This document shows positions 34,892 through 38,973 of a stretch of DNA of 48,340 bases, piece after piece. The translations under genes and the position numbers were made by a program. A model generated the notes under the pieces. That model saw only the letters and a program-made list of their open reading frames with translations, had not been told where the DNA came from and ran no database searches. Within the stretch, counting starts at the first letter, position 1; the number at the start of each line of letters is the position of its first letter. The DNA comes from Gemmatimonadota bacterium (GTDB taxonomy: Bacteria; Gemmatimonadota; Gemmatimonadetes; Palauibacterales; KS3-K002): positions 1 to 48,340 of the forward strand of contig JACQVD010000078.1 in the NCBI GenBank assembly GCA_016209945.1, given 5' to 3'.

Positions 34892-35277
34892 GATAGGGCC
34901 GGAGGCGAACCCGCGCCTGCTGGCTCTCCGACTCCAGCCTCGTTCCGTCTCTCCCTACTCGAGGTTGTCCGCACCCCGCGCCGATCACAGCAGGATGCTG
35001 GCCGTTGACGCTGTGTTGAAGCCGCGGCCTTAGTCTTAGCCCCGACGCTGCGAGGCGGGAGCGCGTTCGGGGCTGGAGCGAGGCCCCGAAGCACGCGGAG
35101 CGGATGGGGTGAGGGCTGGGTGGTCCCGCCACCAGCCGAGGAACTCTCTCGTGCCCCCGTGCGGCCGCTGGAGGCCCGGCCGGAGGGAGGGCGCGGGCCG
35201 CTTTGAGCACGGCCGCGCCGCCGCACGCCTGCGCAGTGGTCACGCTGGAATGGGACCCCAAACCACAGGAGGTCGTG

Positions 35278-35493
35278 ATGCGCAGGAAGCTCATCCCCGT
35301 GCTGTTGGCGCTGGGCCTGCTGGGCGGCACCGCCGTACCGGCGAACACCGCGGTCGTCCAGGACGAGCCTCAGGAGGAAGGCAAGCCGACTCAGGAGTGC
35401 ATCGGCAGCTGCAACAGCGACTTCCCGGGCGGCGACCCGTTCACGGTCGCGATCCGGGGCTGGTGCTACATCATCCGCTGCATGCTCCTCTGA
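35278..35493 (+). CDS. Small secreted Cys-rich protein: 71-aa precursor with a Sec signal peptide and a mature part with CX3C...CX4C
   Basis: ATG 35278 lies 5 nt after a perfect AGGAGG (35267-72). Sequence: MRRKLIPVLLALGLLGGTAVPANTAVVQDEPQEEGKPTQECIGSCNSDFPGGDPFTVAIRGWCYIIRCMLL. High GC3. It is embedded in track ORF 35203..35493. Confidence 0.7.
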   Translation: MRRKLIPVLLALGLLGGTAVPANTAVVQDEPQEEGKPTQECIGSCNSDFPGGDPFTVAIRGWCYIIRCMLL

Positions 35494-35527
35494 GGCCGGG
35501 CGCCTGGACCCAACTGGTCAGGGCAGG

Positions 35528-35563
35528 GGGACCGGGAGGTACGACACCGCGTATCCCGGTCCC
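35528..35563 (+). other. Perfect 10-bp stem-loop downstream of the mini-protein gene; possible attenuator or processing/stability hairpin
   Basis: GGGACCGGGA 35528-37 pairs with TCCCGGTCCC 35554-63 across a 16-nt loop. No U-tract follows. Confidence 0.45.
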
Positions 35564-35644
35564 GCGCCTGGCCGCCCTTCCCATTCAAGACGTGAACCTG
35601 GCGACGTGGCGATCGTGCGCGTGAACGACTGTGAGGTTTGACGC

Positions 35645-36745
35645 GTGAAGCGCGGATCGCATTCGCGTTGCCGCGGAAGAGGGGTTCACCTGCTCGCCGT
35701 CGGCACGGCGGCGCTGTGGGGACTGGCCTGGCTCGGCTGCGCCCGCGATCGGGATCTGCGCTCGCTGCCCCGGTTGACGCCGCTCCCGGATGCGGGGGCA
35801 ACGGCGTGGGCGGGCCTCCTCCATCCCTCGGCCATTCGAACGGACAGCGGCGGTCGCGTGTACGTCGCCGACATCGCTGACCGCAGCGTGAAAGTATTCG
35901 ATGCCTTTGGCACGCCGATCACGACGCTGGGAGGCACGGGCAGGGGCCCGGGCGAGTTCCAACGCATCCAGGACTTCGAAGTCATCGCCGGCGAGGTCAT
36001 CGTGCTCGACTCCGGACTCCGACGGGTGGTGCGCATGACCGAGGATGGCAGCGTGCTGGGGTCGTGGCCCACAGAGGGAGAGGAGGTGCTCGCTTCGCTC
36101 GGAGCGGACGTGCTGATCCTGGCGAACAGCCCGGAGTGGAGCCTGGTGCCGCCGGATGGGAGGACGCGACCGCCGCTGCTCCGGGTCCTTGATCTCCAGG
36201 GTGAGACTCGCTATCGGCTCGGCGAGCGGCAGCCGAGCAAGACGCCTTTTGCCGACTACGTCGCGAACTTCGTGCTCCCCGCAGGCACCCCGGATGGCCG
36301 CCGGATTTGGCTGGCCCGCCTGAACGACCCCGTGGTCGAGGTCTTCTCCAGTGAAACGCGTGCCTCGCGATGGATTGGCCGGCACGTCCCGTTCGACTGG
36401 CGCAGGATCGCGCCGGATTTCGTGCCGTCTCAGGCGATGCTCACGCCGGCGGGCCGCGCGGCGATCCCGTTCGATCCCGTGTCTCTGGACATCGCCACCG
36501 ACGCGCTGGGCCGAGCCTACATCCTCACGGCCCTCACTCCGGATCGGAACGAGGGCCGGCCCCGTCGAGTGGGGGTGGACATCCTGGATCCCCGGGACGG
36601 GAAGGTGACGCGCTACGTCGCGCCGGAACCGGCCACTCACATCGCGGTCTCGCCGGACGGAGGAATCCTATACCTCGTGGACGAGCGCGAGGCTCGGGTA
36701 CGCCTCTACGCGCACCGGCGCGAAGGGAGCGGGGACAGGCGGTGA
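35645..36745 (+). CDS. NHL-repeat / 6-bladed beta-propeller lipoprotein
   Basis: Signal plus lipobox-like AWLGC. NHL-type blades: GRVYVADIADRSVKVFDAFG, LGGTGRGPGEFQRIQDF, VIVLDSGLRRVVRM, ...ILYLVDEREARVRLY. GTG start. Confidence 0.8.
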   Translation: MKRGSHSRCRGRGVHLLAVGTAALWGLAWLGCARDRDLRSLPRLTPLPDAGATAWAGLLHPSAIRTDSGGRVYVADIADRSVKVFDAFGTPITTLGGTGRGPGEFQRIQDFEVIAGEVIVLDSGLRRVVRMTEDGSVLGSWPTEGEEVLASLGADVLILANSPEWSLVPPDGRTRPPLLRVLDLQGETRYRLGERQPSKTPFADYVANFVLPAGTPDGRRIWLARLNDPVVEVFSSETRASRWIGRHVPFDWRRIAPDFVPSQAMLTPAGRAAIPFDPVSLDIATDALGRAYILTALTPDRNEGRPRRVGVDILDPRDGKVTRYVAPEPATHIAVSPDGGILYLVDEREARVRLYAHRREGSGDRR

Positions 36746-36776: not shown

Positions 36777-37511
36777 GTGAGGGTGGAGGCGAAGGACCTC
36801 GTCTGCCGGTACGGCGTGCGGTGGCGGAAGGGAAGGCCGGCGCTCCGCGGGGTCGAATTCGACGCGGCCGGCCCGGTCGTGGGACTCGTGGGTCCCAACG
36901 GGGCGGGGAAGACCACGCTGCTCCGGTGTGTGGCCGGTTTCCTTGCGCCCTCCGCGGGCGCCGTCACGGTGGCCGGTCTCGACCCGGTGAGCTACCGCAG
37001 GCGTCACGGCATCGGCTACCTCCCGGAGCGCATGGCGCTCCCCGCCTACGCGCGCGTGGAGTCTTTTCTCAGGACCGTCGCGAGCCTGCGGCGGGACCGC
37101 TCCGCCGACGCCGTGGAGGAGGTCATCCGCTGGACGGCGATCGAGGGAGTGCGTCGCGAGCGAATCGGCAACCTCTCCCGTGGTTTCCAGAAGCGCGTCG
37201 CGTTGGCCCTTGTAGAGCTCGGGCGCCCGCCCTTCCTGGTGCTGGACGAGCCCACGAACGGTCTGGACCCGATCGCCATCCATGACCTGCGCGAGCGCGT
37301 CGCCGGTTGGCGCGCGGATGGGCGACTCGTGCTCGTCTCGTCGCACCAGCTCGACGAGGTGCAGCGTCTGGCGGACGAGGTGTTGCTCCTGTGGGAAGGC
37401 CGTGTTCGCGCCCATCTCACTCGGGAGGAGTTGAGTGCCAAGGGGCCGGGCTCCCTGGATGCCTGGTTCGCAGAGCGACCCTGGCAGGCGGGCGAGCGGC
37501 GGCACGCGTGA
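36777..37511 (+). CDS. ABC transporter ATP-binding protein (ABC-2 exporter type)
   Basis: Walker A GPNGAGKTT, Q-loop region IGYLPE, signature LSRGFQKRV, Walker B FLVLDEPTNGLD, H-loop SSHQLDEV. All motifs are intact. Confidence 0.92.
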   Translation: MRVEAKDLVCRYGVRWRKGRPALRGVEFDAAGPVVGLVGPNGAGKTTLLRCVAGFLAPSAGAVTVAGLDPVSYRRRHGIGYLPERMALPAYARVESFLRTVASLRRDRSADAVEEVIRWTAIEGVRRERIGNLSRGFQKRVALALVELGRPPFLVLDEPTNGLDPIAIHDLRERVAGWRADGRLVLVSSHQLDEVQRLADEVLLLWEGRVRAHLTREELSAKGPGSLDAWFAERPWQAGERRHA

Positions 37512-38266
37512 CCCGCGTGTCTGGGAGCCCCTGGCGATCGAGCTGGTGCGCGGCTTGGCGGTGGAGCTGGAGCCGCTGGCTCTTCCACAGGCCCGGCCCG
37601 TTCGGTTTGGCCTTTCTCGTGTTGGTGGTGCCCGCGGCGGCGTTCGCTCTCGCCGGTATGGGCGGCGGCACGGAGTGGGCGGCGGCGGTGCGGCGGACGT
37701 TCCTCCTCGGCTCGTTTCTCGCTGCGCTCTTGGTCTCCAAGGGGCTCGCCGATGACGCGTGGAGAGACGGGTACATCGTGTGGTGGCTCCAGAAAGGGCA
37801 GACCGCGGCGCGGTTCGTCCTGACCCGACTCGTGCTCGATACGGTCTTCGTACTCGCGCTCGTCTGTCTGTGGAGCCTCCTGGGAACCCTCGCGCTCAGG
37901 TTCGGGTCGCCGGATGGCATCTTCCTACGCGCGCTCCCGGCCGAGGCGGTCGGGATCGCTCTTGCCGTGTCACTCGTGGCGTTTCTTTCCGCAGCGGGTT
38001 CCGAGCGCGATTCGGATCTTGCCGTTGTGATCCTGCTCCTGGGAGCGGTGTGGAACGTGGGATTCTTTGCGGACATCCCGGGGTGGCTGCACGCCCTTGG
38101 CCGCGTGCTGCTGCCCCCCCTGGACTCGCTGGGGCAGGTGCGGGAGGCGCTCCAGCGGGGCGACCTCCGGGCGGCTCTCGGGCGATCCGCGTGGCCGCTG
38201 GCGTACTGCGGGGCGCTCTGGGTCGGGACGCTGGGGCTCGTCTCCCGCCGGGTGCCTCACGCATGA
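37508..38266 (+). CDS. Six-TM membrane protein, the presumptive permease partner of the ABC ATPase
   Basis: GTG 37508 forms a GTGA overlap with the ATPase stop. About six hydrophobic segments follow a Trp/Arg-rich N-terminus (SPWRSSWCAAWRWSWSRW). I recognise no family motif. Confidence 0.75.
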   Translation: MTRVSGSPWRSSWCAAWRWSWSRWLFHRPGPFGLAFLVLVVPAAAFALAGMGGGTEWAAAVRRTFLLGSFLAALLVSKGLADDAWRDGYIVWWLQKGQTAARFVLTRLVLDTVFVLALVCLWSLLGTLALRFGSPDGIFLRALPAEAVGIALAVSLVAFLSAAGSERDSDLAVVILLLGAVWNVGFFADIPGWLHALGRVLLPPLDSLGQVREALQRGDLRAALGRSAWPLAYCGALWVGTLGLVSRRVPHA

Positions 38267-38973
38267 ACGAGACACCGGTCCAGGCCATCAAGGAGTGGCC
38301 CTCGACCGAGCGGCCGCGGGAGCGGCTCCGAGGGCTCGGGCCCGCGGCGCTGCGCACCCCGGAACTCCTGGCGATCATCTTCGGTACCGGGTCGGCCCGC
38401 AGGTCCGCGTTGCAGGTGGCCGAGGATCTCTACGAGCGGTTCGATCGGTCGCTGCGGAGGCTCGCCGCGGTGCCCGTCGCGCAGCTGGAGGCTGTGCCTG
38501 GGGTTGGAGCGGCCCGGGCGGTGACGGTCCAGGCCGCTCTCGAGCTCGGGCGCCGGGCGGTGAAGGAGACTCGACCGGAGAGCGAGCGGATCGTGTCTCC
38601 GCGGGACGTGTACATGCGGTTTGAGCTCCGACTCCGCGATCTGCGCCAGGAGGAGTTCCACGTGCTGCTCCTGAACACCCAGAACGCGGTGATCCGCGAG
38701 GTGATGGTGAGCCGTGGGATCCTCGACGCGTCGGTCGTCCATCCCCGGGAGGTGTTCGCGCCCGCGCTCGTGGAAGCCGCGGCATCGGTCGTGCTCGTGC
38801 ACAACCACCCGAGCGGCGATCCTACGCCATCGGCCGCCGACCGCGAGGTGACGCGGCAGATGTGCGAGGCGGGCCGGGTGCTCGGGATCCCGGTGCGGGA
38901 CCACGTGATTGTGGGAAACGGGCGGTATATTAGTTTTCTGGACGCCGGCCTCCTTCGCGAGCTGGAGCGGTAG
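38263..38973 (+). CDS. radC: RadC-like JAB/MPN domain protein (UPF0758)
   Basis: ERPRERL...G...L...ELLAI....G, an HhH region, and the JAMM motif VLVHNHPSGDPTPSAAD. ATGA overlap with the permease stop. Confidence 0.92.
   Translation: MNETPVQAIKEWPSTERPRERLRGLGPAALRTPELLAIIFGTGSARRSALQVAEDLYERFDRSLRRLAAVPVAQLEAVPGVGAARAVTVQAALELGRRAVKETRPESERIVSPRDVYMRFELRLRDLRQEEFHVLLLNTQNAVIREVMVSRGILDASVVHPREVFAPALVEAAASVVLVHNHPSGDPTPSAADREVTRQMCEAGRVLGIPVRDHVIVGNGRYISFLDAGLLRELER

Follow-up and report, generated by a model that had tools for sequence, protein, structure and literature searches.

In cassettes of the lactococcin 972 type, the gene for a Sec-dependent, unmodified bacteriocin is followed by a gene for a membrane protein and then by one for an ATP-binding cassette (ABC) ATPase (TIGR01653/TIGR01654 descriptions). 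Lactococcin 972 itself (Lcn972) is a cysteine-free class IId bacteriocin that binds lipid II (PMC8538875), and in plants the alpha-hairpinins, defined by the motif C1X3C2X4-20C3X3C4, are helix-loop-helix peptides with two disulfides (PMC11591084, PMC7191063). Here we describe a bacterial peptide that recalls the first of these systems in its gene arrangement and the second in its predicted fold. It is encoded at 35278-35493 on the forward strand of contig JACQVD010000078.1 (assembly GCA_016209945.1) of a Gemmatimonadota bacterium, in a stretch of 48,340 nucleotides (nt) that was analysed as a whole and is called the window below. The Gemmatimonadota abound in soils, have received little study and include very few small proteins of known character. 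We found that this single open reading frame (ORF) of 71 codons leads to a defined family of about 125 members, which we call the RGWCY family after its motif, with a sequence signature, a predicted stapled hairpin and a link to ABC-2 transporters. The peptide family and its scaffold are new, while a secreted peptide with a dedicated ABC-2 transporter is already known.

The likeness to the lactococcin 972 cassettes lies in the order of the genes: a small gene for a peptide with a Sec signal stands directly upstream of genes for a polytopic membrane protein and an ABC ATPase, and modification enzymes are absent. The peptides themselves differ. Lcn972 has 66 amino acids (aa), is beta-rich, lacks cysteines and comes from Gram-positive bacteria, whereas the RGWCY family is predicted to form a four-cysteine helical hairpin and belongs to bacteria with two membranes. 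Neither the window peptide nor any of 52 family members matches the Lcn972 models (PF09683 / TIGR01653), and scans of the same sequences against the whole of Pfam and NCBIfam gave no family match, the only hits being two single chance ones, to DUF3551 and CoaP_CTERM. A profile of the family found no match among PDB sequences, and we found no earlier description of the peptide family in the papers searched. The window peptide is also unlike the phenol-soluble modulins, which have neither signal peptide nor cysteines, and unlike the lantibiotics, which are modified.

The family was reached only by way of homologues of the gene downstream, which encodes a lipoprotein with NHL repeats, because direct searches with the peptide gave only the window's own sequence. 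A word-indexed search of 5.8 billion proteins returned the peptide's own cluster alone, and a six-frame (tblastn-type) search of 60 relatives gave nothing beyond chance or signal-peptide matches. The NHL gene has full-length homologues at 42-68% identity, one of them from a metagenome-assembled genome (MAG) labelled Longimicrobiales, and directly upstream in each locus retrieved for these homologues there is a small called gene whose translation aligns with the window peptide. In the NHL-linked mini-ORFs, the encoded signal peptide is followed first by C-x3-C-[NDK]-x-[DE]-F-P-G-x-D and further on by A-I-R-G-W-C-Y-I-I-R-C. An initial description of the locus, made from the letters alone and referred to below as the sequence-only reading, had looked to related genomes for a homologous ORF at the equivalent position; such an ORF, with signal peptide and four cysteines, is there at the locus of every NHL homologue.

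Three alignments define the results that follow: A1 with 8 members, A2 with 4 sequences, which was used for the locus search, and A3 with 52 members, the window peptide being the first row of A1 and of A3. A profile of eight sequences, which scores 110.9 bits on the window peptide, found 53 clusters at E < 1e-3 among 1.84 billion representative proteins, nearly all of them 57-100 aa long. Matches to the profile occur in 28 of 401 sampled Gemmatimonadota genomes (7%), the window's genome and 27 further ones, and in a profile search of 145 genomes of the window's order no member was found besides that of the window genome (1/145). Another 75 loci comprise 10 from named genomes (Gemmatimonadaceae or Gemmatimonadales MAGs) and 65 from metagenomes. 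About 125 distinct members were collected in all and every named source genome belongs to the Gemmatimonadota; the peptide family is unannotated and so far, among named genomes, it is a Gemmatimonadota-only family. Members from different lineages share only 30-40% identity overall, yet they keep the cysteines and the RGWCY motif.

The pre-peptide (MRRKLIPVLLALGLLGGTAVPANTAVVQDEPQEEGKPTQECIGSCNSDFPGGDPFTVAIRGWCYIIRCMLL) reads by parts as MRRKLIPVLLALGLLGGTAVPA, NTAVVQDEPQEEGKPTQE, CIGSC...WCYIIRC and MLL, and the alignment shows the same layout across the family: a signal, a linker that varies in length and composition, a conserved core and a short tail. The family signal begins M-[KR]-[KR], continues as a hydrophobic stretch and often ends in P-N-P-x-P-A-D-A or P-A-x-A (A-x-A-like); in the window, cleavage is predicted to follow VPA22. 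The sequence-only reading had described an n/h/c signal with an acidic stretch behind it, and both lie where it placed them, the Sec-type signal being conserved across the family. The family signature consists of this signal, C1...C2-[DN]-x-[DE]-F, a turn, and [AS]-x-R-G-[WY]-C3-Y...C4 near the C-terminus, and the window peptide carries all of it. Nine positions are invariant in A1 (C41, C45, F49, R60, G61, C63, Y64, R67 and C68); C45, F49, R60, G61 and C63 are invariant in A3 too, where W62 and Y64 are at least 90% conserved.

Exactly four cysteines are present in the mature part of 116 of 119 members. The inner pair is fixed, with C2 in C-[DN]-x-[DE]-F and C3 in R-G-W-C-Y, the two lying 18 positions apart in 98 members. 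The offsets of the outer cysteines (C1-C2, C3-C4) fall into classes: 8/8 in 82 members, 4/4-6 in 21 and 10-13/7-8 in 11 (n = 119). At 4 and 5 the window peptide belongs to the short class, and no member mixes short with long offsets. C1 and C4 shift outward together by about one helical turn, as they should in a pair of antiparallel helices with C1-C4 and C2-C3 disulfides, and this concerted shift makes a clean, testable prediction of the disulfide pairing. The two C-terminal cysteine pairs proposed from the letters alone are present, but their spacing is CX3C-N17-CX4C (C41, C45, C63, C68) and not the N21 that was given.

AlphaFold2, run with the 52-sequence alignment, places helices at residues 37-48 and 54-70, with predicted local distance difference test (pLDDT) block values of 93, 94 and 88 for residues 41-70; the signal and the linker are modelled with low confidence. 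A Foldseek search with the peptide model found no PDB relative (best E = 7.6), a common outcome with domains of this size. The first helix is acidic (median charge -3), and the second is hydrophobic, contains one or two arginines and has a median charge of +1; the net charge of the predicted mature peptides has a median of -2 and a range of -7 to +2, that of the window being -4, and their predicted length is about 42 residues in the family and 49 in the window. Genes for VKOR and a DsbA-like protein adjoin in the window's genome (contig C73, 13966-14771; genomes, contigs and loci are identified by G, C and L numbers), so a probable machinery for periplasmic disulfide formation is at hand. A Sec-exported helical hairpin held by two disulfides, which the DsbA/VKOR system would form in the core after export, is well supported, and the probable pairing is a nested one, C41-C68 outside and C45-C63 inside. 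The disulfide-bonded exported peptide of about 45 aa that had been proposed at the outset fits such a structure, the predicted length being about 46-49 aa with a core of about 32, and the conserved signal, the covarying cysteines, the AlphaFold2 hairpin and the DsbA-VKOR pair all agree with it.

The predicted structure resembles that of the alpha-hairpinins and of other cystine-stabilised alpha/alpha peptides. As in the alpha-hairpinins, two antiparallel helices, each with a cysteine pair, would be joined by nested disulfides within about 30-45 residues, and both kinds of peptide are made with a signal peptide in an oxidising compartment. The alpha-hairpinin motif itself is absent, the pattern being CX3C-X17-CX4C in the window and CX7C-X17-CX7C in most members (82/119). 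The RGWCY family has a motif of its own (C[DN]x[DE]F...RGWCY), whereas alpha-hairpinins conserve the cysteines only, and its members are bacterial and anionic where alpha-hairpinins are from plants and cationic. Another hairpin parallel is found in the mitochondrial intermembrane space, with its twin-CX3C and twin-CX9C proteins.

The ORF at 35278-35493 is a genuine gene and not a chance ORF. Its G+C content by codon position (0.61/0.47/0.93) is like that of secA (0.70/0.40/0.94) in a window of about 69% G+C, and G or C occupies 67 of its 71 third positions, with a binomial tail of 1.6e-7 at p = 0.69, the mean composition of the window; the earlier remark that its third positions are as GC-rich as those of neighbouring genes is borne out. 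This gene-like pattern is missing from the upstream extension of the ORF (0.72/0.52/0.80), from the alternative frame at 35109-35624 (0.81/0.67/0.63), and from the overlapping minus-strand ORFs and both intergenic stretches. The sequence-only reading had placed an AGGAGG with 5-nt spacing ahead of the ATG at 35278 and not of 35203, and there it stands (Table 1), as the only AGGAGG within 34892-35300; of 77 family members, 68 have a GGAG/GAGG-type site ahead of their aligned start codon. A longer form of the ORF, with 25 more codons upstream, runs from a TTG at 35203 and encodes 96 aa, and public records of the gene hold three starts: GTG 35275 in the NCBI record (72 aa), ATG 35278 in Logan assemblies (71 aa) and the TTG in strain variants (96 aa). 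We take ATG 35278 to be the start because all aligned members begin M-[KR]-[KR] and the Shine-Dalgarno spacing fits. The frame closes with TGA at 35491-35493. Automated callers, which had been expected to miss or mis-start such a gene, do mis-start it but do not miss it, and the family merits its own family model so that annotation pipelines stop mis-starting its members or labelling them hypothetical.

Table 1. Features of the peptide gene and its surroundings in the window
Feature	Position	Strand	Basis or description
Leader or promoter region, non-coding	34892..35277	+	No coding signature
Shine-Dalgarno AGGAGG	35267..35272	+	5-nt spacer TCGTG, then ATG 35278
Pre-peptide coding sequence, 71 aa	35278..35493 (stop codon included)	+	Codon-position GC; about 125 family members
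Sec-type signal peptide, residues 1-22 (n-region MRRK, h-region LIPVLLALGLLGG, c-region TAVPA)	35278..35343	+	Sequence and family alignment
Variable acidic linker, residues 23-39, NTAVVQDEPQEEGKPTQ	35344..35394	+	Variable length, weak conservation, low pLDDT
Conserved core, residues 40-71	35395..35490	+	Helix 1 with C41 and C45; DFPGGDP turn; helix 2 AIRGWCYIIRC with C63 and C68
Perfect 10-bp stem-loop (GGGACCGGGA/TCCCGGTCCC)	35528..35563	+	35 nt past the stop codon; candidate partial terminator or messenger RNA stabiliser
NHL / six-bladed beta-propeller lipoprotein (DUF5128-like)	35645..36745	+	Signal ends ...LAWLG-C
ABC transporter ATPase, ABC-2 / DrrA / NosF / ABCA kind	36777..37511	+	Pfam ABC_tran 1.7e-23
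Polytopic permease, 252 aa	37508..38266	+	5-6 transmembrane helices (hydropathy); overlaps ATPase stop codon

Strain variants that differ from the window by about 4-5% of nucleotides keep the frame, with no stop codons or indels in the peptide ORF. Their signal peptide carries one T-to-A change and the last 21 amino acids are unchanged; the rest of the peptide shows 7 amino-acid changes between close strains against 1 purely synonymous change, the acidic linker holding 2-3 of the former. The ratio of non-synonymous to synonymous substitution rates (dN/dS) is about 1.2-1.9 for the peptide, calculated from only 9-11 substitutions, and 0.27 for the NHL gene. On these figures the changing part of the peptide shows no purifying selection; positive selection is not proven thereby, the counts being small. 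A chance ORF in G+C-rich DNA, without function, would also change about as fast as its flanking non-coding DNA, and between close strains the ORF does so (substitutions at 11/213 nt against 19/311 nt), mostly with a change of amino acid. Such an origin is nevertheless exceedingly improbable in view of the G and C at third positions, the unbroken frame in every variant, the conserved Shine-Dalgarno site and the roughly 125 homologues that have kept their cysteines and RGWCY motif in spite of low overall identity.

The gene does not travel alone. A six-frame scan of each locus, with peptide, NHL and ABC ATPase profiles and a hydropathy filter, found an ABC ATPase gene within 3.5 kb downstream on the same strand in all 40 distinct loci (that of the window among them) that have 2.5 kb or more of sequence beyond the peptide gene. 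By a rough estimate, an ATPase would be found within 3.5 kb by chance in a few percent of cases. One or more polytopic membrane proteins are also encoded downstream on the same strand in 40/40 loci, so that the peptide gene always stands ahead of both kinds of partner. The common order, which we call type B, is peptide, TM1 (about 250 aa, 6 helices), ATPase and TM2 (about 245 aa), and the membrane-protein gene usually starts 4-50 nt past the peptide gene. In type A, the short-spacing (CX3C) class, the NHL gene separates the peptide gene from those of the transporter, and the two types divide cleanly: the NHL lipoprotein gene is found in 9/9 type-A loci and in 0/31 type-B loci. Most type-A loci encode a membrane protein that hhalign shows to be a TM1 homologue (probability 93%, E = 2.5e-7); in the window and its closest relative, L046, the permease is placed after the ATPase and has no detectable relation to TM1 or TM2. 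Past the peptide gene of type-A loci there is a stem-loop, found at the same place in all eight loci examined (-20 to -37 kcal/mol per 50 nt) with unrelated sequences; in the window, the fold of 35494-35644 has an energy of -73.4 kcal/mol (z = -2.2).

Within this common plan the cassette varies in its completeness and its setting. TM1 is encoded in about 30 of the 401 sampled genomes and has the peptide adjoining it in 25, while several loci carry tandem, divergent copies of the peptide beside a single transporter. Intact pairs of TM1 and ABC ATPase without an upstream peptide gene occur in G186 (L165, C78) and in G212 (L167, C101), in the latter directly after pspA, and TM1 is frame-broken in G187 and partial in G302 (L166, L168); the cassette thus decays, or loses its peptide, in some lineages. 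In the Gemmatimonadaceae the order is uvrA, 3-4 small single-pass proteins, pspA, an AI-2E-family transporter, peptide, TM1, ATPase, TM2 and cysS, a run that is seen at L084:1118-12229 and also in L080, L081, L082, L083 and L086. The tandem single-pass proteins of this run have about 90 aa and a EERLDFAERLLARQR-like motif near the C-terminus. The link of the cassette to pspA may point to envelope stress. In the window, the cassette sits between secA and radC.

The partner proteins belong to recognisable kinds. The NHL protein matches Pfam DUF5128 (E 1.7e-6, 27.9 bits against a cut-off of 22.9) and the NHL repeat, its PDB matches are NHL-repeat proteins, and a cysteine directly after the hydrophobic segment of the signal in 7 of 7 homologues inspected indicates that these are lipoproteins. 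A Pfam scan of the cassette proteins found no domains other than those of the NHL/DUF5128 and ABC ATPase kinds. For the ATPase, which is the best match in its genome for the ATPases of other cassettes, the nearest NCBIfam models are GldA, DrrA and the lantibiotic-protection ATPases, all under cut-off; its best PDB matches are ABCA nucleotide-binding domains, TM_1403, NosF and LptB, with NosF the best-scoring named bacterial one, behind eukaryotic ABCA domains and an unnamed Thermotoga ATPase. A homologue search with the window permease found 4 proteins only, none of which has a name. Its AlphaFold2 model, built on 5 sequences, has a predicted template modelling score (pTM) of 0.80, and Foldseek matches the model to NosY, ABCG25, KpsM and PmtCD at a probability of 0.99-1.0 and a template modelling score of 0.54-0.68, with a best E-value of only 3.7e-3; NosY is the best match at 0.64. 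On this model, the window permease has the predicted ABC-2 (type V) fold.

Two described groups of transporters are brought to mind. As in LanFEG and PmtCD, an ATPase of the DrrA or lantibiotic-protection kind is encoded with a peptide, together with a permease whose model falls in the PmtCD/NosY/ABCG fold class; unlike the lantibiotic-protection ATPases, the window ATPase reaches only 118.5 bits on TIGR03740 against a cut-off of 309.75, and it misses all curated cut-offs. As in NosDFYL (PDB 7o0y, 7znq), an ABC-2 module with NosY- and NosF-like parts has periplasmic and lipoprotein partners, but the cassette holds no homologue of NosD (a beta-helix), NosL or NosZ, and the partners are an NHL propeller and a four-cysteine hairpin.

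The reading that we tentatively prefer, by analogy with such systems, is that the peptide is a Sec-exported cargo that is handled or expelled by the transporter, in the manner of a bacteriocin with its immunity system. Signal peptidase would free the peptide, and the hydrophobic helix would retain it on the inner membrane's outer face, from which the ABC-2-type transporter would extract or expel it, as PmtCD does with phenol-soluble modulins and LanFEG with lantibiotics; the peptide would be the transporter's cargo and not its building block, and in the window's subtype the NHL lipoprotein would be an extra periplasmic binder. The transporter would double as self-protection against a bacteriocin-like, envelope-active peptide that would act on the envelope of the producer or of its neighbours, and the stem-loop would let the messenger RNA of the peptide exceed that of the machinery. 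Such a role is suggested by the patchy distribution (7% of the sampled phylum, 1/145 in the window's order), by the tandem divergent peptide copies of several loci, by the peptide-less TM1-ABC cassettes of G186 and G212, which resemble orphan immunity genes, by the fast change between strains (7 amino-acid changes against 1; dN/dS about 1.2-1.9) and by the stem-loop after the peptide gene in 8/8 type-A loci. If the peptide is a true antagonistic agent, bacteria with two membranes would have in it a new antimicrobial scaffold, Sec-dependent and unmodified, complete with an immunity system.

Several observations weigh against a bacteriocin-like cargo. Gemmatimonadota have two membranes and Sec export reaches the periplasm only, and the cassette is without an outer-membrane secretion gene. 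The mature peptides are net anionic, unlike most membrane-active bacteriocins, and conservation is higher in the RGWCY core than in the membrane proteins that accompany it. In the Gemmatimonadaceae the position of the cassette, between pspA/AI-2E and cysS, is fixed across genera, which looks more like a physiological module than a strain-variable weapon. The type-B peptide gene is tightly coupled to TM1, without room for a stem-loop, and this fits a stoichiometric subunit. To these may be added the small number of substitutions behind the dN/dS of the peptide and the failure of hhalign to detect any relation between the window permease and the TM1 or TM2 of other cassettes. Many of the same features speak for a periplasmic accessory subunit or adaptor, an oxidised hairpin that would dock on the outer face of the ABC-2 transporter and, in the window's subtype, may dock on the NHL lipoprotein too, as part of a mechanotransducing machine of the NosDFYL/LolCDE/Mla/Lpt kind whose real substrate would be a lipid, a metal or an envelope component. 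The two membranes and the lack of an export gene for the outer one, the tight coupling of peptide and TM1 genes in type-B loci, the very strong conservation of the core motif, the stable place next to pspA across genera and the anionic charge are all in keeping with a subunit, as are NosY as the best fold match of the permease and NosF as the best named bacterial match of the ATPase, and the perfect covariation of cysteine subtype with the NHL lipoprotein (9/9 against 0/31) suggests a physical partnership. A subunit is the main rival to the cargo reading, and we think it slightly less probable; against it, the type-A stem-loop suggests a peptide made in excess, divergent copies stand in tandem beside a single transporter, intact transporter cassettes lack the peptide altogether, and the membrane partner differs across subtypes (the window permease as opposed to TM1 and TM2), which is odd for specific docking. 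A true transporter subunit would represent a novel sort of periplasmic ABC accessory. It is rather unlikely that the family is, more specifically, the bacterial periplasmic counterpart of the eukaryotic twin-CxnC hairpins; on that view a mechanotransducing ABC-2 transporter would have the peptide as its own extracytoplasmic subunit or hand-over adaptor, and in the short-spacing subtype the NHL propeller lipoprotein would be the partner that receives. Such peptides would form a class of ABC-transporter accessory not recognised before in the envelope of two-membraned bacteria, and they might be linked to the Psp membrane-stress response.

Three other roles appear less probable. Four invariant cysteines on two helices, an ATPase and permease that resemble NosF and NosY, and a propeller protein as type-A partner would suit a periplasmic carrier of metal (Cu(I) or Zn) or of thiol/disulfide redox equivalents, whose load the transporter and the propeller would receive or deliver; NosL/NosDFY and Cox17, a mitochondrial twin-CxnC protein, would be the analogues. 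Such a carrier is improbable: the concerted shift of the outer pair suits structural staples and a fixed metal site would be less tolerant of it, conserved His or Met ligands and a CxxC motif are lacking, the compartment is an oxidising one with DsbA and VKOR present, and no NosD-, NosL- or NosZ-like genes were seen in the cassettes inspected. A secreted quorum or envelope-stress signal that is sensed or recycled through the transporter would likewise be small and strain-variable, as the peptide is in its linker and the first half of its core; the peptide gene adjoins pspA in the Gemmatimonadaceae, and its copy in L046 adjoins a sigma-54 activator gene and has a sigma-54-like promoter. We think a signal quite improbable, given that the cassette has no conserved gene for a sensor kinase or a receptor, that the transporter has an exporter-type ABC-2 fold in the models and that the window shows no convincing sigma-54 site. 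The order of the genes, in which a small and precursor-like peptide gene with a stem-loop behind it precedes those for a propeller and an ABC transporter, also recalls ribosomally synthesised and post-translationally modified peptides (RiPPs), and some NHL propellers are enzymes, peptidyl-alpha-hydroxyglycine lyase being an example. The peptide would then be a RiPP-like precursor modified after export, with the NHL propeller as modifying enzyme and the ABC transporter as exporter. This is very improbable, since 31 of the 40 loci encode only peptide, membrane proteins and ATPase, with neither an NHL protein nor another candidate enzyme, the peptide has a Sec signal instead of a leader with a double-glycine site, the ATPase-permease pair lacks a peptidase domain, and radical-SAM, LanM or YcaO genes occur in no cassette. 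In the nine loci that do bear it, the NHL protein may have an enzymatic role.

Upstream of the peptide gene, in a leader that has a terminator-like site after secA (35010-35028), we found no sigma-70 and no convincing sigma-54 consensus. The last 25 nt or so of the leader (ACCCCAAACCAYAGGAGGTCGYG) are nearly identical in the divergent relative L046, as an alignment with L046 and L043 shows. In L046, the closest type-A relative, a sigma-54 activator without a regulatory domain is encoded directly upstream of the peptide gene (L046:3960-5009); it has 349 aa, consists of AAA+ and HTH_8 only and is PspF-like in architecture. A sigma-54-like site, TGGCACG-N4-TGTGCT, lies about 66 nt upstream of the peptide ATG at L046:5648, and it agrees with the consensus at 10 of 12 positions, a score reached in 0.6% of shuffled upstream regions. 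A fragment of a related sigma-54 activator gene is also found upstream in L053; the window has secA at that place. A sigma-54 promoter was considered for the window peptide gene and dropped, the good site being confined to L046.

Some minor observations concern the neighbouring genes and the genomes. Between the peptide and NHL genes, the strain variants (L042-L045) carry a 9-nt insertion at window position 35602 and TT>GG at 35638-35639; these changes open the NHL frame upstream, so that callers start the NHL gene 35 codons earlier (401 aa instead of 366 aa). Of the two possible NHL starts, that of the 366-aa form is where the lipoprotein signal begins. Genomes of the window's order hold very large sets of paralogous NHL or six-bladed propeller proteins, up to about 100 first-look candidates per genome among relatives G002-G060, and what these have in common with the window's NHL protein is confined to residues 60-145. 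At the other end of the cassette, radC (38263-38973) overlaps the permease stop codon in the window; it is probably foreign to the module and was rejected as a part of it, the genes after the permease in L046 being different and without a RadC domain. The window's assembly (G000) has only 1.73 Mb at an estimated completeness of 83.5%, and relatives of the same family have 2.0-5.5 Mb; either the genome is unusually small or its completeness is overestimated. In 4 of 10 genomes fetched (G202, G451, G503 and G338; L078, L079, L084 and L085) the contig breaks off shortly after cysS, 4.7-5 kb beyond the peptide gene, which may indicate a repeat or a ribosomal RNA operon at that place.

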